From a virus (taxonomy: Duplodnaviria; Caudoviricetes): a stretch of 64,000 bases of DNA. Positions 3,030-60,485 of this stretch are shown here, piece by piece (position 1 is the first letter of the stretch; every line of letters begins with the position of its first letter). The notes below the pieces were generated by a model. The model was given only the letters and a program-made list of their open reading frames with translations, did no database searches and was not told the DNA's origin. The translations under genes and the position numbers were made by a program. The stretch lies in the IMG/VR virus record IMGVR_UViG_3300035180_001680, one strand, 5' to 3'.

Positions 3030-3305
3030 TCATTCATCTTCATCAACAATTCCAATGTGTTTTCGTCGAATAATTGCTCTTAAAGCGACTCCAAACGTGA
3101 AGCCTTTCATGAATTCTTCTTGTCTGTTTTGATCTTCATCAGGACAAGCTTCTGGGGGATTCGGCTTTTTGTTCGCTTCTCGGAATGCCGAATTGAACCC
3201 ATCTATATAATAATCAGAAGCTTTTGATAACAACTGTTGAAGTTCATCATGAAGTTGAGTTGCAATGAGAAAAATTTCCGTTTGGGAGGCTGTTGAATAT
3301 TTCAT
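3030..3305 (-). CDS. Hypothetical protein
   Basis: ORF tightly packed in operon. Confidence 0.5.
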   Translation of the reverse strand: MKYSTASQTEIFLIATQLHDELQQLLSKASDYYIDGFNSAFREANKKPNPPEACPDEDQNRQEEFMKGFTFGVALRAIIRRKHIGIVDEDE

Positions 3306-3307
3306 AT

Positions 3308-3823
3308 TTATTTGTGGTATTTCTGTTCCATGGTTTTTGGAGTTCCGTCTTCGTTGAAACCGTAATCTCCATTATATTGAGATAATGCTTCTGCTTCCCA
3401 TAATAACATTTGACCTACTCTTGTTCCCGGTTTGATTTTCATTGGTCCACCATGAACATGTAAACATCCAGCCATTGAACCATTGTACCCACTATCATAA
3501 TTTCCTGATGTAATGAATACACCATTACGGTTTAGTGTTGATCGTGTAATAACAAAACCGGCTTCTGTTTCACCCATTTTGATAATATGATTGGTTGTAA
3601 TTTCGTAAGTTCCAGGTTCAAGAAACCAATAACCTTCTTCATCCAACGCTACTTCTTCTGTCTCACGATGTATTTTTGATTCTTCGTCAATTACGAATAA
3701 CGTCGGCTTGATTCGGCGAACTGTTTTTAATCGAAGATCAACAGCGTTTTGTTGAATACAATCTGCGTCTAAATTTGTTAATTCCGTTTTACTTTTTGAT
3801 GATGCAGCATGAACCATACTCAT
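3308..3823 (-). CDS. dCTP deaminase/dUTPase family protein
   Basis: VDLRL, RSTLNRNG, DSGYNG, GTRVGQ motifs of the trimeric dUTPase/Dcd fold. Confidence 0.85.
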   Translation of the reverse strand: MSMVHAASSKSKTELTNLDADCIQQNAVDLRLKTVRRIKPTLFVIDEESKIHRETEEVALDEEGYWFLEPGTYEITTNHIIKMGETEAGFVITRSTLNRNGVFITSGNYDSGYNGSMAGCLHVHGGPMKIKPGTRVGQMLLWEAEALSQYNGDYGFNEDGTPKTMEQKYHK

Positions 3824-5930: not shown

Positions 5931-6917
5931 TTATAAGTCCAGATATTGCTTTAACGTCTCAACTCGCGAGGAAGATTCGTTTTCAAGTTCCGCCCAGCGT
6001 AGTATTCTTTTAATACCAGTTGCTTTATCTCTAAATTTCACCAAATGTGAACTTGTTAAGTCGTTGAACAATTTAACAAGTTCACCATTGGTTAAATTAT
6101 TCAGTTTGTTTTCAATTTGTTTAATATCTCTACGGTCTCCAGATTGTTTAGTTGGATACACACTTTTTTCAAAAACATCTTGTTTGTGGGCTGTTACAGA
6201 ATCAACTTCTCCATAAACTTCATATTTCCAACAACGTCCTTTAGTGTTGTTGTAGTCCCTCGGAATAGATACGACATCTGCTGGGTTGATTTTAACTAAA
6301 ACAACTCTTGTATAATTAGGATTACCACCGTAATTTTCGAGGTATGATTGAGAACAGAAGTGTAATCCTTTTGAGCAGGTATTATTTCGATTGTCGTCAA
6401 CTTGGTCCCTTGACATCTCACATATACTTCCTACAGAATTGTCAAAAGTTCCAGAGTATATATCTTTATAATCTAATCCAACTTTTTTGTAAGCAAGAAA
6501 ACAACCATCTTCAGTAATTGGCATATTTCCAGATTCCAAAAAATCATATAATTCATTAACGGCCGTTGAACTTGGATTTTGTAATAAATTTGCTAAAAAC
6601 TCCACCATTGGTTTAACATCAAAACCATCTTTCCACATTTTAAAAATTCGGGAAGTGAGTGTATTGTGAATCGTTTTACCACCATACGTAACGACTTCAT
6701 AGTCAAAATCTATGTAAAGTAAATTATTTTGTTGTTGGTTCATTTGTTTGTCAAACCAAGTTTTAATATTAAGAAGTGATTCAATGTTTTCCCAATCTTG
6801 GTTGCGAATAGCGTTATAGACTTCAGTGAAATTCCGGTGAGTCTGGTCAATTGTGTACGCTTTTGAATCAATCGTAATTGATATAAACGTGTCTGTCATA
6901 ATATAAGGGTAAGCCAT
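5931..6917 (-). CDS. rIIB: rIIB-like protein
   Basis: PITEDGCFLAYKKV, TCSKGLHFCS, VKINPADVVSIP; directly downstream of rIIA. Confidence 0.9.
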   Translation of the reverse strand: MAYPYIMTDTFISITIDSKAYTIDQTHRNFTEVYNAIRNQDWENIESLLNIKTWFDKQMNQQQNNLLYIDFDYEVVTYGGKTIHNTLTSRIFKMWKDGFDVKPMVEFLANLLQNPSSTAVNELYDFLESGNMPITEDGCFLAYKKVGLDYKDIYSGTFDNSVGSICEMSRDQVDDNRNNTCSKGLHFCSQSYLENYGGNPNYTRVVLVKINPADVVSIPRDYNNTKGRCWKYEVYGEVDSVTAHKQDVFEKSVYPTKQSGDRRDIKQIENKLNNLTNGELVKLFNDLTSSHLVKFRDKATGIKRILRWAELENESSSRVETLKQYLDL

Positions 6918-6919
6918 TT

Positions 6920-9064
6920 TTAATCTCCGTTAATAAATTGTATGAAATCATTATCAAAATTCTCATTTATCATTTGTTCAAAATCTAAATATTTTAATAT
7001 TGGGTATTTAATGATAATATTATCCCATAATTTTTGGTAAAAGTCTACTTTGGATTTTCCCACTTTATAAATATTTTCCTTTGAATCAGTTTTTGCTTGA
7101 ACTGTATTTCCCAACCGGCTCCAATAAGATATTGTATCATAGTTATATTGATGTTCTTGTGATAAAGATGTAAAGAATTCTTTTACATTTTCATCCTTTA
7201 TATCCACTGAAAACTGTTTGAAAGATTTTTGTTTTTCGACAAGACCAAGTCTTAAAAAGAGTTTGAGTAGGGGAAGTGACTGTGCCCTGAGTTGATCATA
7301 CACCATCTTGGTGTATATCATTTTTTTAGCACTTGGATCTTCACAAGATCGTTGGGCTAATTCGACTAAATTGACCCAATGTTTTTCTTTCTTGAGTTGT
7401 TTCAAAACTCTTGGCCCTACACCATAGACTGTTATGTTTGGTTTAATGAGGTTAAGGCGTGACATTAATTGCACTAGGTCATCAATGTTAGCTGTTGAAC
7501 CAGAATCTTTGATTGCAACACCAAACCTATCTAGTTCAACATAATACCCACCATCCTTTATATCAACAGAAACAGAATTCCACATGTCCCGTTTGGTAAC
7601 CCGCATTCTGCCATTCCGTTGATAACAATTTATCGTTCCTGGCTGATTAACAACTCTAACCTTCGTCGTTTGTGTGACAACGGGGAGCGGCAACTCATCA
7701 ACGTTTTTTATTGGAGGGTTTCCTAGTAAATCAATTAATTCATCATATGCTCGTTTTGCCTCGTCTGAATTCGAATCCAGAGAAATTAGATACAGTTCTC
7801 CTGGTTGTTTCTTTGCGTGTTCTTTAATTCGAATTCCCGCACCCTTTGAACTATTATTAAGAAAAAAGTGAGAATTGGAATATTCTCCGCGTACTTCATT
7901 TGATAAATATTTTCCAGTTCGGTGTCCTCGTCGGTTTGCAAACACTTTTATTGTAATATGTGTCGTTATAGTTAAAGATTGTTTAAAATTAAACTGAACA
8001 TCTAATGCTTTACCATTTTTCCATTTTAAGTTGTGGGGGAGAATGCTTCCAAACGAACGGAAAAGTGCAGTGAACTGTTTGCAGGCTTCCCAAAAGGTGG
8101 GTAGAGCGTCTAAATCTTTAACCATTTTGTCGACAATTTCATTTTGAGTTGAAACGAGAGTCTTTTTTAATTGTTCGCACGTGTAAGCATCATAAGAAAG
8201 TGCTTCACGTGACAATGCAACGTCTAGATTTCCACGTTCATTGTTATCATCAAACATATCAAAATAAAAATCTATTGGAGAATTTATCAGTGAGCTAACA
8301 CAGTCTGGAATATCTTGTTTGTATACTGAATTAAAATTAACTGGGTAAAAAACCCCACCTTGAATTACTCGTGGACCTCCAAATCGTTTTGTTCTCAATC
8401 CCCAGTTTGTTCCTCTTATAAGATATTCATGACTGTCGAACGCAACTCGTTCAGGTGCAAGTCCCTTTATGTTTGGTAAAGGAGTAAAATATTGTAATAC
8501 AGAAAAAACCTTGAGTTGAAATACATTAAAATCGTATTGTTTAATTGGAACGATTACTTCCAAACCAGAAGGTTCGTCGTTCGGTTCTTCGTTTATTAGA
8601 GCAAGAACCGGGATTCCTTCTTCGCCAATATAAGCAGTGTATGTTCGTTTAAATTGTTCGATTCGGGACACGATTGTAAAATTATCTGTATACGCAAACG
8701 GACTCTTCGCACCAACCCCAAAAGCTCCAATTTCTCTGTTGGATGAATTTTTAGTACTCTCCGAATATGTAGTATAGATGTCAAACATTTCCGTGTGAGT
8801 TAAACCTTTTCCATAATCACGAACAGAGAAGTGAGGATACATTTCATTCGGAACATGAATGTCAAAAGGAATATTTTCTTTTCCTGCTACTGTATGAGCA
8901 TCTTTTGCGTTACTTGCAAGCTCTCGTATTACAGCTCCTGTTTTATCGGCATATATTTTATCTGATAAAAGGTTAAACATTTTAGCGTCAGCTTTAATAG
9001 TAAAAGCTTTTTCAGTAAAATTGCCGCCACGTTCAACAGTTTTCTGAATTACTTCCTGTTTCAT
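6920..9064 (-). CDS. rIIA: rIIA-like protein (GHKL/Hsp90-type ATPase N-terminus)
   Basis: IRELASNAKDAH, VRDYGKGL, IGAFGVGAKSPFAYTD. Confidence 0.9.
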   Translation of the reverse strand: MKQEVIQKTVERGGNFTEKAFTIKADAKMFNLLSDKIYADKTGAVIRELASNAKDAHTVAGKENIPFDIHVPNEMYPHFSVRDYGKGLTHTEMFDIYTTYSESTKNSSNREIGAFGVGAKSPFAYTDNFTIVSRIEQFKRTYTAYIGEEGIPVLALINEEPNDEPSGLEVIVPIKQYDFNVFQLKVFSVLQYFTPLPNIKGLAPERVAFDSHEYLIRGTNWGLRTKRFGGPRVIQGGVFYPVNFNSVYKQDIPDCVSSLINSPIDFYFDMFDDNNERGNLDVALSREALSYDAYTCEQLKKTLVSTQNEIVDKMVKDLDALPTFWEACKQFTALFRSFGSILPHNLKWKNGKALDVQFNFKQSLTITTHITIKVFANRRGHRTGKYLSNEVRGEYSNSHFFLNNSSKGAGIRIKEHAKKQPGELYLISLDSNSDEAKRAYDELIDLLGNPPIKNVDELPLPVVTQTTKVRVVNQPGTINCYQRNGRMRVTKRDMWNSVSVDIKDGGYYVELDRFGVAIKDSGSTANIDDLVQLMSRLNLIKPNITVYGVGPRVLKQLKKEKHWVNLVELAQRSCEDPSAKKMIYTKMVYDQLRAQSLPLLKLFLRLGLVEKQKSFKQFSVDIKDENVKEFFTSLSQEHQYNYDTISYWSRLGNTVQAKTDSKENIYKVGKSKVDFYQKLWDNIIIKYPILKYLDFEQMINENFDNDFIQFINGD

Positions 9065-9227: not shown

Positions 9228-9641
9228 TCACACCATTCTCCCAAAAGTAATATGCATATTGTTAATTGGTTTGAATCCAAGTTCTTTTCTATAGTCGTTT
9301 AATTTTTTGCTACGAACAGGAAGTGCGAAGAATTTCCAATGTTGTTCAAATTCAACATTGTATTCGAACGTGATGATTTCACCAGCATGAGCTTTCCACG
9401 TGTTTCGAAATTCAGGCTTAACTGGATACCGTCCATCAAGAACTGTGACATGAGCTTTCCACGCTGGAAGTTGAAGTCGAAGCCCCCACATTCTTTCAAC
9501 CCACCAATTGTAATAATTTGCAATACGGGGGTCCGTTTCGACGATTAACCACCAATCATCGTTTTGGCGAGTTTTCCGAAGTTCTGGACGTTTTGGTTCA
9601 TATACAAGTTTCCCTGTTGCTTTAACCCAATTAGTCGTCAT
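9228..9641 (-). CDS. 2H phosphoesterase family protein
   Basis: Two HxT motifs (AHVTV, MHITF) about 65 aa apart. Confidence 0.7.
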   Translation of the reverse strand: MTTNWVKATGKLVYEPKRPELRKTRQNDDWWLIVETDPRIANYYNWWVERMWGLRLQLPAWKAHVTVLDGRYPVKPEFRNTWKAHAGEIITFEYNVEFEQHWKFFALPVRSKKLNDYRKELGFKPINNMHITFGRMV

Positions 9642-17174: not shown

Positions 17175-17207
17175 AAAAAAAGCCTCGGGAGATTTCTCTG
17201 CCGAGGC
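17175..17207 (-). terminator. Intrinsic terminator of attenuator 1
   Basis: GCCTCGGCAGAG-AAAT-CTCCCGAGGC followed by T7. Confidence 0.9.
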
Positions 17208-17227
17208 CTATTAACTTTTGTTTACTT

Positions 17228-17329
17228 TCAGATGATTAGTTTGATTTCAACAGTCAATGCCTCGGCGTGTGAACGTTTATTATTAACGTTTACATTATTG
17301 ATAAAAATTGGTTTAGTTGAATCGAACAT
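17228..17329 (-). CDS. Leader peptide 1 (Asn/Val/Lys): MFDSTKPIFINNVNVNNKRSHAEALTVEIKLII
   Basis: 33 codons; contains antiterminator GCCGAGGC (17259-17266) complementary to the terminator 5' arm. Confidence 0.85.
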   Translation of the reverse strand: MFDSTKPIFINNVNVNNKRSHAEALTVEIKLII

Positions 17330-17365
17330 TTGTAAATTCTTTAAGTTTGTTAAGTTAGTGTTATA

Positions 17366-17394
17366 AGTATATATGACTTATTTATGAAAGTCAA
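17366..17394 (-). promoter_or_regulatory. tRNA-operon promoter 1 (sigma70 plus embedded late ATAAATA)
   Basis: TTGACT-N17-TATACT with ATAAATA in the spacer; same block at 23326, 36623, 60373. Confidence 0.9.
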
Positions 17395-23015: not shown

Positions 23016-23048
23016 AAAAACCCAGTCTCTTTTGGAAACTGGGTTTTT
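23016..23048 (-). terminator. Intrinsic terminator of attenuator 2
   Basis: AACCCAGTTTC-CAAAA-GAGACTGGGTT followed by a T-run. Confidence 0.9.
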
Positions 23049-23071
23049 CTTTTTAAGAATTTAGCTTTATG

Positions 23072-23167
23072 CTATACCCAGCCTCCAGACATAATAATAT
23101 CACTGTCGCGACGTACTTGGCGTCGGCGAATGATACTAATACTCTGTTGTTGTCTGGTTACGAACAT
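23072..23167 (-). CDS. Leader peptide 2 (Arg/Gln/Ile/Ser/Asp/Val): MFVTRQQQSISIIRRRQVRRDSDIIMSGGWV
   Basis: 31 codons, RBS AAGGAG; CTGGGT (23076-23081) can pair with terminator 5' arm ACCCAG. Confidence 0.9.
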   Translation of the reverse strand: MFVTRQQQSISIIRRRQVRRDSDIIMSGGWV

Positions 23168-23325
23168 TTGTAAAGCTCCTTAAATTAAATGGTGTTTACT
23201 ACTTTATCGTCTGCTTAATATACGCTTCTACGCACCCACATATTTCTATGTTTTGTTAGTACCGGGACGTCCTAGCTTTCAACACCTAACTATTTAGTTA
23301 AGCACTTTGCTCAACTGTTGATACA

Positions 23326-23354
23326 AGTATATATGACTTATTTATAAAAGTCAA
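23326..23354 (-). promoter_or_regulatory. tRNA-operon promoter 2
   Basis: TTGACT-TTTATAAATAAGTCATA-TATACT. Confidence 0.9.
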
Positions 23355-49449: not shown

Positions 49450-50370
49450 TTTACTTTGTATAAGGTTGAGATTAAACCTATACTATTGATACCTTCGAGA
49501 CATTATCTCATCACCTGCTACAGCTAGAGTTCTTCTCTTATCCACATAATCAGCTTTCGCACAACTATGTCTATCAACATGACTGCATTTTTTAAGTGGT
49601 TGCTTTTCCACCAACATGTAAAGCTACTCGATTATCTGTCTACCGCCAACCTTGCGAGCTGTACAAGAGCGCTAACTCTCTGCGTGCGACTTTCTTTCAA
49701 CATCCTCGACCTTGCGAGTTTTGGACGCCTTCATTACCTTGCGGCTGAAGGATTAAGCCATTTTCACTTTACACTGGAAACGTCTTTGCGTTTTATGTAA
49801 TATAATCCAAATTTATATGGGCTGTTAACCCTAACATTGTTAAACCTACCAAGAAGTGCGTTTCCAGTGGATTTCATACCTTTTGAGTATAAAAATACCA
49901 CACTCCTCATGTTTTTCATCTGCCGACTACTCAACCAGTTTTCAGGAATCGTGACACCCTATTACAGGTACCAAAACCCCCTCAACTTGCACAACAGCCC
50001 TTACTTGCGGGTTCGGACCACTGTACTACCCTTTACCTTTTGAGATGGCTAGTTTGTGTAGGCGTGAGGTCGGCACAACCCGTTACTCTCCAAATGCCCA
50101 AGTTCCCTGCAGAGCAGGCTTGTAAACATTCGTTCTTTCCACACCCCTAACTTCCCTCATATGACTACCGTTGGCGATAATCAGCTCCTTTCGGAGTAGG
50201 TCAGGCTTGCTTGTTTGTACCCCTTACAGGGCGCGGTAGTTGTAGGACCTACCGCTTTCACAACATCGCTGTTGGTTACTTTGCACAAGCGCGTAATTCT
50301 TTATCTTTTAAATTGTTTCTGATGAAACGTTCTGAATTCACAGAACTAATTAAAAGAGTGACTTTCTTAA
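49450..50370 (-). ncRNA. Giant structured ncRNA, GOLLD/ROOL-like
   Basis: About 900 nt without a credible ORF; many GCAA/GAAA-capped hairpins on the minus strand; downstream of a tRNA; TTGACT promoter near 50410. Confidence 0.6.
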
Positions 50371-50906: not shown

Positions 50907-50981
50907 CGGTGCCCAATGTCGGAATCGAACCGACGGTCAAGTGTTTTAGAAGCACCTGCTTTACCATTAAGCCAATTGAGC
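50907..50981 (-). tRNA. Amber suppressor candidate tRNA(CUA)
   Basis: GGTGC-TTCTAAA-ACACT in canonical register. Confidence 0.65.
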
Positions 50982-57730: not shown

Positions 57731-57853
57731 TGGTTGTTGTGGTAGGACTCGAACCTACACAAGCTGCTGGAAGGGTTACTATTTTAGTCTGTCTTCACAG
57801 AGCTCCCCACTATGATTCCACCGCCGGGGTATACCAATCCCCCTCACACAACA
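57731..57853 (-). ncRNA. tRNA-scaffold RNA with a branched insertion replacing the anticodon loop
   Basis: Intact acceptor, D and T arms and CCA; about 50 extra nt. Confidence 0.6.
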
Positions 57854-57856
57854 ATT

Positions 57857-57949
57857 TGGTAGTCCTGGTGGGTAACGCTCCCACTACTTGCCCTCATCTA
57901 GGACCTTGGATGTTTATAAATCATCTTGTTTTCTTTAAACTACAGGACC
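57857..57949 (-). tRNA. tRNA-Ile(UAU), long variable arm, atypical T-loop
   Basis: GATGA-TTTATAA-ACATC; CCA. Confidence 0.7.
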
Positions 57950-57957
57950 AATTTGTT

Positions 57958-58042
57958 TGGTGTCTCGAGGGAGACTCGAACTCCCACCTTTCGGTCAATT
58001 GTTTTTGAAACAATTCAGTCTACCAATTCCCTGCACCGAGAC
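57958..58042 (-). tRNA. tRNA-Leu(CAA)
   Basis: ATTGT-TTCAAAA-ACAAT; CCA. Confidence 0.88.
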
Positions 58043-58061
58043 AAATTTAAAACTTTAAAAC

Positions 58062-58152
58062 TGGCGGAAGGTACAGGAATCGAACCAGCGGCTCTACTTA
58101 GATGCCGGCGACTGCTTTCAAAACAGTTTGTCTGCCATAGACACTACCTTCC
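58062..58152 (-). tRNA. tRNA-Ser(UGA)
   Basis: ACTGT-TTTGAAA-GCAGT; CCA. Confidence 0.85.
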
Positions 58153-58157
58153 ATATA

Positions 58158-58661
58158 TCACTTTCTGTGTTTAATACACCGAGTTGAAATCCAACCCCGG
58201 CCACCCACAGTTCCTCGTGCACCACACACTTCACAAATCATTTTACTTTGATATTCAGCAAACTGAATTGCTGAATATTGTTCTTCGGTTGCGTTAGAAA
58301 CATAAAACCGAAGAGTTCCAAATTTTTCTTTCACTTGCCGAGCAACAGGAATCGAAAGTTCTGCATCATCCATCCTTACTTTGGTTGCGGCAATCAACTC
58401 AGTTGTGATAATAGGGTTAAAATCACTTTCAGGACTACCTGGATACAAAAGTTGACCAAGGTTAGGCACCATACGATCGTATGTGTATTTCTCATAGATC
58501 CAATCGCTGCACAAAAATTCAGACAATTGATTAATAAGATTAAACCAACCATCTCCACAAGTAACCCCCCAACACATACAAGTTTCACTCATCGGAAGAG
58601 TGTGTTCTTTATATAGAGCAGGATACTTCTTAAAAAGATAATTTTGATAATGTCTGTTCAT
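58158..58661 (-). CDS. Hypothetical phage protein
   Basis: CGDGWF...QVKEKFGTLRFY...CEVCG...WISTRC. Confidence 0.65.
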   Translation of the reverse strand: MNRHYQNYLFKKYPALYKEHTLPMSETCMCWGVTCGDGWFNLINQLSEFLCSDWIYEKYTYDRMVPNLGQLLYPGSPESDFNPIITTELIAATKVRMDDAELSIPVARQVKEKFGTLRFYVSNATEEQYSAIQFAEYQSKMICEVCGARGTVGGRGWISTRCIKHRK

Positions 58662-58717
58662 TTTTAGTCTCTCATCATATATTAAATGATATTTTAAAAT
58701 GACGAAAATGTCAACAC

Positions 58718-58805
58718 AGGTCCGAGTGACCGGATTCGAACCGGTACGACCTTTCGGCCGGCAGGGTTTAAGCCTGCTGCATCTACCTAATTACACCACA
58801 CTCGT
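58718..58805 (-). tRNA. tRNA-Leu(UAA)
   Basis: GCAGG-CTTAAAC-CCTGC. Confidence 0.85.
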
Positions 58806-58810
58806 AATTT

Positions 58811-58894
58811 TGGTGCCCCAGACGGGAGTCAAACCCGTAAAAACCTGCGTTCTTAGCGCAGTATCTGTACCAATTTGCATTTGTCACCGGGGGC
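58811..58894 (-). tRNA. tRNA-Leu(AAG), near-duplicate of 59545
   Basis: CTGCG-CTAAGAA-CGCAG; short V-loop. Confidence 0.75.
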
Positions 58895-58906
58895 AATTTA
58901 ACTGTC

Positions 58907-58990
58907 TGGTCCGCAGGGAGGGATTCGAACCCACAAAAGCACTACCGTTTGAAGATAGGGGCTGTACCAATTTACCTAAGCCACCTGCGG
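58907..58990 (-). tRNA. tRNA-Leu(CAA)
   Basis: CTATC-TTCAAAC-GGTAG; CCA. Confidence 0.78.
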
Positions 58991-58995
58991 AAATA

Positions 58996-59086
58996 TGGCG
59001 GAGAGTACAGGAATCGAACCAGCGGCTCTACTTAGATGCCGGCGACTGCTTTCTAGGCAGTTTGTCCACCATGGACGCTACTCTCC
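58996..59086 (-). tRNA. tRNA-Ser(AGA)
   Basis: ACTGC-CTAGAAA-GCAGT; body nearly identical to Ser(UGA) at 58062. Confidence 0.82.
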
Positions 59087-59092
59087 AATATT

Positions 59093-59179
59093 TGGTCGGC
59101 AAGGGGGGATTCGAACCCAACCAAGAGCACTGGAACTTAAATCCAGGGGCTGTACCAATTTACCTAAGCCACTTGCCGA
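59093..59179 (-). tRNA. tRNA-Leu(UAA)
   Basis: CTGGA-TTTAAGT-TCCAG; CCA. Confidence 0.75.
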
Positions 59180-59246
59180 ATAGTACCTAATGAGGGATTC
59201 AAACCCTCGCTCACCTTGTCATATAGATTAATGAGACAAACGTGGT

Positions 59247-59348
59247 TGGTGGCCACAGGATGGGAATTTAACCCACTTATCCAGAGGAATGGGAGCTACG
59301 CCTCGAGGAATCTCCCACAGTGCTGTTTCAACTACACCTATCTGCGCC
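59247..59348 (-). ncRNA. tRNA-like RNA with a 16-nt anticodon loop
   Basis: TGGGAG-ATTCCTCGAGGCGTAG-CTCCCA; T-arm; CCA. Confidence 0.5.
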
Positions 59349-59357
59349 ATAATATTT

Positions 59358-59430
59358 TGGAGCGGGCTATGAGATTCGAACTCACCTCTTTCGGCTTGGA
59401 AGGCCAAACGTACACCACTTGACAACCCGC
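59358..59430 (-). tRNA. tRNA-Gly(UCC)
   Basis: TTGGC-CTTCCAA-GCCGA; CCA. Confidence 0.88.
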
Positions 59431-59439
59431 ATTAAATTT

Positions 59440-59536
59440 TGGAACCGTATTGCAGTCACGCTCTGCCTGTGTTGCACCTGGACTCCAAGTACAACTCTTA
59501 TTGATTCTTACCAGCACCTACTGGAATGATACGGTA
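59440..59536 (-). ncRNA. tRNA-like RNA with non-canonical arms
   Basis: ACCGTAT/ATACGGT stem plus CCA; GCAG-AGCGTGA-CTGC in the T-arm position. Confidence 0.4.
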
Positions 59537-59544
59537 ATATTTTT

Positions 59545-59627
59545 TGGTGCCCCAGACGGGAGTCGAACCCGTAAAAACCTGCGTTCTTAGCGCAGTAGCT
59601 GTACCAATTTGCATTTGTCACCAGGGC
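59545..59627 (-). tRNA. tRNA-Leu(AAG)
   Basis: CTGCG-CTAAGAA-CGCAG; CCA. Confidence 0.8.
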
Positions 59628-59760
59628 AATATATCATGTTTTAATCTTTATAAATGTTCACGTTCTAACTGTTTTCTTGTGTATCGAATTGTGGTTCGTT
59701 TAAATAACCAGATACCACCAACAAAGCGATTGTTCCAAATAACACACAACAGGACAAACT

Positions 59761-59837
59761 TGGTACCCAACCTCAGATTCGAACTGAGAACCACAACGTT
59801 CTAAGCGTTGCCGCGTTACCAATTAGCGTAGAAGGGT
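59761..59837 (-). tRNA. tRNA-Leu(UAG), short variable loop
   Basis: CAACG-CTTAGAA-CGTTG; CCA. Confidence 0.85.
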
Positions 59838-59846
59838 ATTAAATTT

Positions 59847-59936
59847 TGGTGGGGAGAGGACAGAATCGAACTTCTTGCCACGAGGGACAGGGGCTACAAC
59901 CCTGCGCCAGGACCACCTAGCCTTATTTCACTCCCC
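59847..59936 (-). tRNA. tRNA-Tyr(GUA), divergent
   Basis: CAGGG-TTGTAGC-CCCTG; weak T-stem. Confidence 0.65.
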
Positions 59937-59943
59937 TTTATTT

Positions 59944-60029
59944 TGGAACGCTAGGTAGGATTTGCACCCACGTGGGCTTTCACCATCTGCTTTGCAGGCA
60001 GTTCCGTTCGTCTACTCCGGCACTAGCGC
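59944..60029 (-). tRNA. tRNA-Cys(GCA), long variable arm
   Basis: CTGC-CTGCAAA-GCAG; U73; CCA. Confidence 0.85.
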
Positions 60030-60035
60030 ATAAAT

Positions 60036-60154
60036 TGGTGGGCATGGTAGGAATCGAACCTACTCACCACGAGGGAACGGATTTAGTCGAGAACACTGGA
60101 AAACCAATGCTCTCTAGTCAGTCCGCCGCGACTCTCCAACTTCGCCGCATGCCC
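60036..60154 (-). tRNA. tRNA-Tyr with a 33-nt hairpin insertion in the anticodon
   Basis: GCGGA-CTG[33 nt]TAAA-TCCGT; Tyr-type body; CCA. Confidence 0.75.
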
Positions 60155-60169
60155 CAAAATATTTCAAAT

Positions 60170-60181
60170 TTTTAAATAACA
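60170..60181 (-). promoter_or_regulatory. boxA-like element
   Basis: TGTTATTTAAAA after terminator 4. Confidence 0.5.
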
Positions 60182-60190
60182 GTTTACAAC

Positions 60191-60222
60191 AAAAAAGCCT
60201 GGGTCTTTCGAGCCAGGCTTTC
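60191..60222 (-). terminator. Intrinsic terminator of attenuator 4
   Basis: AGCCTGGCTC-GAAA-GACCCAGGCT followed by a T-run. Confidence 0.9.
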
Positions 60223-60240
60223 TTTTGGGATTTTTTCTCT

Positions 60241-60336
60241 TTACATCTTGGTAATTCCCCAAACGGCGACCTGGCTCTTATCCAATATGGATAAAGACCC
60301 GAGTGATAGACAATAACCTAATCCGTTTGTGTTCAT
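60241..60336 (-). CDS. Leader peptide 4 (Leu/Ser/Gly/Tyr/Cys/Ile-AUA): MNTNGLGYCLSLGSLSILDKSQVAVWGITKM
   Basis: 31 codons, RBS AAGGA; GAGCCAGG (60270-60277) is an exact complement of terminator 5' arm CCTGGCTC. Confidence 0.9.
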   Translation of the reverse strand: MNTNGLGYCLSLGSLSILDKSQVAVWGITKM

Positions 60337-60372
60337 TTTGTAAATCCTTTAAGTAATTAATTCAGTGTTATA

Positions 60373-60401
60373 AGTATATATGACTTATTTATAAAAGTCA
60401 A
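60373..60401 (-). promoter_or_regulatory. tRNA-operon promoter 4
   Basis: TTGACT-TTTATAAATAAGTCATA-TATACT. Confidence 0.9.
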
Positions 60402-60485
60402 CGAATCATTCTATTCCATCAGAAATACCACCAACAAATTTCTGACATTCCGTGTTATTATCGATTAATTGTTCAATGATATCAT

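Follow-up and report, generated by a model that had tools for sequence, protein, structure and literature searches.

A likely leader-peptide attenuator ahead of a phage tRNA array, one of four matched leader-array cassettes in a single genome

Why phages carry tRNA genes is debated, and codon bias, host shut-off and escape from tRNA-cleaving defences have all been put forward. The phage genome considered here (178,796 bp, single contig, 36.5% G+C) has at least 45 tRNA genes, all on the minus strand of the window, by which we mean the whole 64,000-nt stretch of DNA that was analysed; the window is the reverse strand of the genome. The segment at 60401-60191, ahead of one of the tRNA arrays, raises the question of whether these genes are gated by the translation of a short leader written in the codons that the tRNAs themselves decode. 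An original prediction had interpreted the segment as an attenuator. Our analysis supported this interpretation, in that all parts were present in order (the 1:2 hairpin as a prediction), the antiterminator was kept and the leader-array match recurred; regulation was inferred, not observed. We conclude that the cassette, designated W4, is likely to be a ribosome-mediated attenuator of the trp/ilv type that senses decoding speed and gates the transcription of phage tRNA genes, a conclusion for which there are no expression data. The phage belongs to an uncultured lineage of sediment and microbial-mat metagenomes. Its cassette DNA was found in such metagenomes and no RNA run contained it; termination, read-through and translation of the leader ORF are therefore all unobserved.

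On the minus strand, the order of parts is promoter, Shine-Dalgarno (SD) sequence, leader ORF, intrinsic terminator, boxA-like site and a 16-gene tRNA array:

60372-60401, minus strand: promoter block of 30 bp, near-consensus sigma-70, 10/12 matching
60401-60396 and 60378-60373, minus strand: -35 TTGACT and -10 TATACT of the promoter block, with a 17-nt spacer
60345-60349, minus strand: Shine-Dalgarno AAGGA, 8 nt upstream of ATG
60241-60336, minus strand: leader ORF, 31 codons plus TAA, encoding MNTNGLGYCLSLGSLSILDKSQVAVWGITKM
60283-60324, minus strand: matched run GLGYCLSLGSLSIL, codons 5-18, which are proposed to act as the sensor
60288-60304, minus strand: region 1, predicted to pair with region 2 as an anti-antiterminator hairpin (dG -13.7 kcal/mol)
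60269-60284, minus strand: region 2, with the antiterminator core GAGCCAGGU at 60277-60269, codons 20-23
60191-60221, minus strand: intrinsic terminator (dG -15.9 kcal/mol), with six U at 60196-60191
60221-60210, 60209-60206 and 60205-60194, minus strand: terminator 5' arm, loop GAAA and terminator 3' arm
60169-60181, minus strand: boxA-like element TGTTATTTAAAAA, ten nt past the terminator
57857-60154, minus strand: tRNA array of 2.3 kb with Tyr, Cys, Leu, Gly, Ser and Ile

Apart from the leader, no ATG ORF of 12 or more codons lies between the promoter and the terminator. Four features by which a ribosome-mediated attenuator is recognized were present, namely an SD, a start codon and a short ORF between promoter and terminator, enrichment of cognate codons, an intrinsic terminator, and a positioned, mutually exclusive 2:3 antiterminator. 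None of the curated Rfam leader families reached its gathering score in the window. The Rfam Thr_leader model (RF00506) matched 60188-60297 at 25.6 bits, below its gathering score of 55, and the cassette is therefore not a member of this or any other curated leader family.

The array begins with Tyr(GTA, 33-nt insert), Cys, a second Tyr-like gene, Leu(TAG), a Leu(AAG)-like gene, Gly(TCC) and two unclear tRNA-like elements, and continues with a Leu(TAA)-like gene, Ser(AGA), a tRNA with a CAA anticodon, another Leu(AAG)-like gene, Leu(TAA), a 167-aa ORF, Ser(TGA), Leu(CAA) and Ile(TAT). ARAGORN in default mode reported the anticodons GTA (33-nt insert), GCA, TAG, TCC, AGA, TAA, TGA and CAA, and Ile(TAT), at 57949-57857, was an ARAGORN call at the 90% threshold that scored 29.3 bits with Rfam. 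The two Leu(AAG)-like genes (59625-59545 and 58900-58815) combine perfect anticodon and T arms with enlarged, irregular D arms; they were missed by default tRNA finders, were detected only by eye and by a relaxed search, and gave a partial Rfam match of 20.9 bits. Several genes of the array are non-canonical tRNAs, the function of which is unproven. The A34 tRNAs of the array are Ser(AGA), at 59086-58996, and both Leu(AAG)-like genes, all on the minus strand. Two tRNA-like elements, at ~59350-59250 and ~59250-59180, were not assigned an identity. The ARAGORN call Lys(CTT) at 58990-58907 was set aside for a CAA anticodon because, in our own reading, the latter has a proper 5-bp stem, U33 and A37. 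Gly(GCC) lies at 52530-52454, 5.3 kb downstream of the array. A promoter-like site within the array (58714-58686) could independently feed the last three tRNAs.

Fourteen consecutive codons had been singled out in the original prediction, and we found them exactly as quoted, as codons 5-18 of the ORF at 60336-60241. The claim of a near-complete match to the array held, since 13/14 codons of the run have a cognate in it by standard wobble rules, and so did the statement that GGT has none. The claim that ATA is a rare codon failed: ATA makes up 24% of the Ile codons of the genome and is therefore not rare for the phage. The run had also been said to sample nearly every anticodon of the array, which held as a count (10/10) and was only marginal against synonymous resampling (null 7.9, p=0.043). 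As judged by genome amino-acid frequencies, a run of this length has P ~2e-5, computed on the 12-residue run of a conservative tRNA set. Among 887 small ORFs of 20-45 codons in the genome, the longest L/S/G/Y/C/I run was that of the leader, with 14 codons against 11 for the next best. Tuning at the level of isoacceptors was not shown by synonymous resampling (p ~0.04-0.2), being marginal for the W4 run and absent in the other cassettes, and each sensed codon is present only once or twice in the leader.

The promoter block occurs in exactly four copies in the 178.8-kb genome. Each copy lies ahead of a leader and a tRNA array, and is followed by an SD, an ORF of 31-33 codons, a strong terminator, a boxA-like site and the array:

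17175-17394, minus strand: cassette 1, ORF 17329-17228 with NNVNVNNK and rich in N/V/K; antiterminator GCCGAGGC; array Val/Asn/Lys/Lys/Lys
23016-23354, minus strand: cassette 2, ORF 23167-23072, rich in R/Q/I/D/V/S; array Gln/Asp/Arg/Val/Ile
36420-36651, minus strand: cassette 3, ORF 36568-36470, rich in F/T/A/P/E/W/H/M; array Pro/Ala/Glu/Phe/Thr/His/Trp/Met
60191-60401, minus strand: cassette 4 (W4), leader rich in L/S/G/Y/C/I; array Tyr/Cys/Leu/Gly/Ser/Ile
60181-60169, 36378-36366, 22981-22969 and 17191-17179 (approximate): boxA-like elements, one per cassette

In a matrix of codon-level decodability, the diagonal, where each leader meets its own array, gave 10/32, 20/30, 20/31 and 15/30, against 0-9 off the diagonal. 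The true assignment of leaders to arrays ranked first of 24 permutations, with 72 matches against 57 for the next. Run probabilities over the leaders were 2e-5 to below 5e-6, and every leader had the longest run for its own array's set among the 887 small ORFs. The four terminators differ in sequence, and the last third of each ORF carries its own matching antiterminator (p = 0.001, 0.001, 0.051 and 0.002 for cassettes 1-4). An inverted repeat, TGACTT-N8-AAGTCA, spans the -35 hexamer and the spacer of the promoter block in all four copies (60401-60372; 17394, 23354, 36651); it could be the operator through which a single regulator acts on the four tRNA operons together. A conserved 5' stem-loop of the GAGCA-NNG-TGCTC type directly follows the promoter in cassettes 2 and 3 (approximately 23318-23300 and 36615-36597 of the window) and in all cassettes of a related phage contig, G003; it is absent from cassettes 1 and 4.

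The promoter block is conserved in related phage contigs and served to retrieve relatives: three contigs in IMG/VR and, for one of these, further copies in metagenomes. The promoter pattern gave 0 matches in bacterial genomes; in metagenomes it recovered the G003 phage again and a single match that was put down to chance. Contig G001 (56 kb) has orthologues of cassettes 2, 3 and 4, and G003 (257 kb) has three more distant cassettes; the single cassette of G002, identical to G003a, was left out. The same architecture was found throughout. An SD (AGGA, GGAG or AAGGA) lies 7-10 nt ahead of the ATG in 10/10 cassettes, terminator dG across all 10 ranges from -14.2 to -18.5, and an element of the TGTTCWTTAAMAATTTG type lies 8-40 nt past the leader terminator in eight of the ten.

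We take this element to be boxA-like. The TGTTCWTTAAMAA element follows each leader terminator and precedes a structured, untranslated tRNA transcript, much as the boxA of rrn operons, known also from lambda nut, stands ahead of rRNA. Against the 13-mer boxA consensus of E. coli rrn, 2-3 positions are mismatched. Matches with 3 mismatches are common in this AT-rich genome (48 on one strand), and similarity alone is weak evidence; the remaining matches in the genome lie inside protein genes and were judged to be chance. The conservation of the element suggests, without binding data for NusB/NusE, that antitermination may be processive over the tRNA arrays, beyond the attenuator.

If the leaders sense the tRNAs of their arrays, they should follow array content from phage to phage. 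In G003, the assignment of leaders to arrays was the top of 6 permutations (57 against 33). Its Gly/Cys/Tyr/Leu/Ser array includes Lys tRNAs, and the 18-codon leader of that array has three Lys (3/17 positions in the count); its Val/Ile/Gln/Asp array includes Asn and Met tRNAs, and the leader has Asn and Met. A comparison with homologous arrays lacking Ile(UAU) or Ser(AGA) had been proposed as a check of the prediction, and we ran it on G003. At the amino-acid level it was passed: Ile(UAU) is absent from the orthologous array, and Ile codons are absent from its leader. At the level of isoacceptors it was not fully passed, as TCC is used twice and no Ser(AGA or GGA) tRNA was found. Where an amino acid differs in array membership within an orthologous pair, its frequency was higher in the leader of the cassette with the tRNA 15 times, lower 3 times and the same 6 times, in a tally over pairs that are not independent of one another.

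Within the run, three replacements (G to C, C to Y, L to S) and six synonymous changes separate W4 from its counterpart in G001 (G1c); the variant in a co-occurring strain is set apart from W4 by two replacements (G to S and L to S) and two synonymous changes. Every one of these replacements remains in the L/S/G/Y/C/I class. The tail after the run shows no such constraint, its replacements being D to A, K to M, G to E and T to L. We infer, from sequence alone, that selection within the run acts on codon class and not on sequence. G1c is followed by an ORF before the contig ends, and its array is therefore unseen.

The segment GAGCCAGG (60277-60270) of the leader ORF exactly complements CCTGGCTC of the terminator 5' arm. 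The exact 8-bp complement that had been described thus held, and a G-U pair lengthens it to 9 bp. The duplex between ORF and terminator arm had a dG of -17.5 (p=0.002 against 1000 dinucleotide shuffles of the ORF). In 10/10 cassettes, a segment of the ORF pairs with the terminator 5' arm, and it always lies 3' of the run; p per cassette was 0.001-0.06, with a Fisher combined value of 2e-11, the cassettes being partly related. The 2:3 helix is formed by the following segments:

Window (W4): antiterminator GAGCCAGGU; terminator 5' arm GCCUGGCUC
G001 (G1c): antiterminator GAACCAGGC; terminator 5' arm GCCUGGUU(U)C
Co-occurring strain: antiterminator AAGCCAGGU; terminator 5' arm GCCUGGCUU

Between W4 and G1c, 9/9 helix pairs are kept, one of them through a double, compensatory change. 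In the co-occurring strain, found in three metagenomes, a G>A change in the antiterminator is a synonymous AAG-to-AAA change, and a U inserted in the 5' arm is accompanied by an A inserted in the 3' arm, leaving the terminator stem intact. These results show which parts are present and how they are ordered, the statistical match between leaders and arrays, the covariation in the helix and the way in which leaders track arrays across phages.

We modelled the ribosome footprint on an RNA cut just before the terminator 3' arm, with the specific 2:3 helix as the read-out. Another read-out, the 5' arm paired with anything, was dropped as noisy for W4 and G1c. In the model, the probability of the 2:3 helix was 98-99% with codons 1-16 in the A site, 77% with codon 17, 21% with codon 18 and 0% with codons 19-27. 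The matched run therefore ends where a stalled ribosome loses the ability to antiterminate. The run ended at codon 18, 25, 27 and 21 in W1, W2, G1b and G3c, and the corresponding boundary fell at codons 18/19, 25/26, 26/27 and 20/21, respectively. Co-transcriptional snapshots indicated that the 1:2 hairpin (60304-60288 with 60284-60269) forms before region 3 is made; this hairpin, as predicted by the model, completes a four-region layout of the trp type. At equilibrium and without a ribosome, the cut-off RNA preferred 2:3 (0.99) over 1:2. The 1:2 apex is preserved in G1c only in a shifted register, and cassette 3 showed full 1:2 sequestration without a ribosome. A second pairing, of GGGUCUUU with AAAGACCC (region 1 and terminator 3' arm), was not used because it is not conserved in G1c.

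When the whole terminator was included, equilibrium folding favoured the terminator at almost every ribosome position. The same equilibrium preference is true of trp. The mechanism must therefore be kinetic, which is an inference, and the equilibrium fold with the complete terminator was dropped as uninformative for a kinetic switch in favour of the cut RNA. In W4, W1 and G1c, the antiterminator can re-form with the ribosome at the last 3-5 codons or at the stop; termination thus needs a ribosome ~60-80 nt behind the polymerase, or a second ribosome.

We propose the following mechanism. Host RNA polymerase would start at the sigma-70-type promoter, and a ribosome would load onto the 31-codon leader. 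When aminoacyl-tRNA for Leu, Ser, Gly, Tyr, Cys or Ile is scarce, the ribosome would linger in codons 5-16 and melt region 1, leaving region 2 (GAGCCAGGU) free to pair with the emerging terminator 5' arm; with the terminator blocked, the polymerase would continue beyond the boxA-like site and transcribe the tRNA genes by which those codons are read. Under fast decoding, a ribosome over codons 18-28 would mask region 2 as the terminator is made, and transcription would stop at 60196-60191. Without translation, region 1 would pair with region 2 and termination would be expected. The net effect would be negative feedback, each of the four tRNA blocks being made on demand by the decoding of its own codons. 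Since the leader is written mostly in array-cognate codons inside a terminator/antiterminator switch, the block is probably transcribed only under slow decoding. We infer that termination is regulated, and also its polarity and what would trigger it physiologically (the codon demand of the phage, cleavage or loss of host tRNAs, or starvation). As a whole, we regard the cassette as a probable, evolutionarily maintained leader-peptide attenuator and as one of four units that partition the genetic code, with read-through and regulation unobserved.

We considered four other explanations. In the first, the terminator is a fixed, unregulated dampener or insulator that trims a very strong early promoter by a constant fraction without sensing tRNA, and the ORF merely keeps the 5' RNA stable or free of Rho. 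In its favour, equilibrium folding prefers the terminator, there are no expression data, the codons occur once or twice each and synonymous tuning is absent. However, it leaves unexplained why four leaders match their own arrays and follow array content between phages, why run replacements stay in class, and why an ORF-internal antiterminator is kept by compensatory change. We consider it unlikely.

In the second, the attenuator answers amino-acid starvation (uncharged tRNA) or a general slowing of translation, and the tRNA genes are one more growth-related target. Classical attenuators read tRNA charging, and a ribosome on the leader cannot distinguish absent from uncharged tRNA; the device is the same as in the explanation that we prefer, and the two differ in the physiological trigger only. 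Against this, extra tRNA would not relieve starvation, and a code split into four separately sensed arrays fits the supply of the tRNAs themselves. This explanation, too, appears improbable.

In the third, the ORF encodes a small functional peptide, for instance a hydrophobic membrane peptide, the terminator ends its gene and the likeness to the array is incidental. GLGYCLSLGSLSIL is hydrophobic, and the N-terminal 17 residues are fairly conserved against G1c. However, the four paralogues are of very different composition, each matching its own array; the G003 orthologue has only 18 codons and shares composition, not sequence; the tail is unconstrained; and the ORF-internal antiterminator is unexplained. 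We think this reading very unlikely. A chance AT-rich small ORF beside a terminator is all but excluded: small ORFs are common (887 of 20-45 codons), but the run has P ~2e-5 and ranks 1/887, the duplex has p=0.002, and the genome has four instances of the design, which is found in relatives as well.

We then compared the preferred reading, a leader-peptide attenuator of tRNA genes, with known systems. Among amino-acid-operon leaders, those of ilvGMEDA (Ile/Leu/Val), ilvBN and thr (Thr/Ile) are multivalent, and trpL, hisL, leuL and pheL each respond to a single amino acid. W4 shares with such leaders a promoter, an SD, an ORF rich in regulatory codons, alternative 2:3 and 3:4 helices (with 1:2 as a predicted third) and a terminator ahead of the genes, and with ilvGMEDA, ilvBN and thr the use of several amino acids per leader. 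It differs from them in residing on a phage and in having tRNAs instead of biosynthetic enzymes as its proposed targets, in covering six amino acids (up to nine in cassette 3), mostly with 1-2 codons each and not with runs of a single codon, and in belonging to four units that partition the genetic code. The pheM leader attenuates E. coli pheST, an aminoacyl-tRNA synthetase operon, in response to one amino acid. As is proposed for W4, a component of the translation apparatus is controlled by decoding of its own cognate codons; for W4, in contrast, the proposed targets are tRNA genes, and the amino acids involved are many. T-box riboswitches likewise couple the state of the tRNA pool to the choice between terminator and antiterminator upstream of translation-related genes. 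A T-box RNA needs neither ribosome nor ORF and uses its specifier codon and T-box sequence to bind uncharged tRNA directly, whereas the proposed sensor of W4 is the translating ribosome. No T-box match reached the gathering score in the window, and none was found at E up to 5 in 57800-60450.

In the full-text literature searched, tRNA genes, whether of phages or not, were nowhere described as targets of leader-peptide attenuation. The sole match in a collection of cultured phages was Alishewanella phage Slicko01 (tRNA-Tyr, 87%), which carries nothing comparable to the cassette ahead of its array. Mechanisms of this kind are known, and the target and logic proposed here, tRNA genes gated by the decoding of their own codons, have probably not been described before.

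The attenuator would extend leader-peptide attenuation, known for amino-acid operons and pheST, to tRNA genes. If it is real, phages keep watch on the tRNA pool separately for each codon class and answer with matching tRNAs, and the question of how phages use tRNAs becomes directly testable by reporter assays. The four differently written leaders, together with orthologues that track their arrays, amount to a built-in comparative experiment, and the leaders would serve as compact natural sensors, reporting decoding capacity for many codons simultaneously. A bolder reading, which we regard as no more than possible, is that large phages run a modular sense-and-replace system for the translation apparatus: with the code divided into blocks (four in this genome), each guarded by a test gene that ribosomes read, the loss of any host tRNA of a block would switch on exactly the phage tRNAs that replace it. 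The loss might come from anticodon nucleases or other tRNA-targeting defences, from phage-induced decay of host RNA or from the AT-rich codon demand of the phage, again only as possibilities. If this were true, the tRNA arrays would be inducible modules of both counter-defence and supply and not constitutive codon-usage patches.

Several further observations were made on the genome. Type-II phage tRNAs (Tyr, Ser, Leu) carry hairpin inserts of 31-33 nt in their anticodon loops:

60154-60036, minus strand of the window: tRNA with hairpin insert
31374-31259, minus strand of the window: tRNA with hairpin insert
~3271-3386 and 6773-6888, G003 locus L016: tRNAs with hairpin inserts

Two of the inserts end in CTCGAC; they fold at -7 to -17 kcal/mol and are far shorter than group I introns. 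The insert-bearing tRNA-Tyr is missing from the co-occurring strain, in which 60035 is joined to 60162. A fifth tRNA cluster lies outside the window (genome C1, ~9290-9400) and consists of Met, Leu (235-nt intron), Gly, Pro and Thr; its promoter reads TTGACT-17-TATAAT, and an ORF of 4 codons and a boxA-like site are present, with neither a terminator nor a matched leader.

A tRNA with a CTA anticodon (50908-50981, minus strand), of the amber-suppressor type, was labelled Pyl by ARAGORN. TAG is the rarest stop codon (25/226), and the genome otherwise reads well in table 11; stop-codon recoding, at which this tRNA hinted, was ruled out because 86% of the genome is covered by ORFs of table 11. 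TAG is the stop codon of the leader in sister cassette 2. The rIIA-like protein of the phage (714 aa; 6920-9064, minus strand) has <30% identity to any cultured phage. A full-length GOLLD RNA (49463-49908, minus strand; Rfam RF02032, 198.8 bits, E 1e-54) lies between tRNA arrays. Finally, an ORF at 62893-63999 on the plus strand, which runs off the window, resembles, by eye and from its translation only, an enzyme of the IMP dehydrogenase/GMP reductase type with an intein-like insert.
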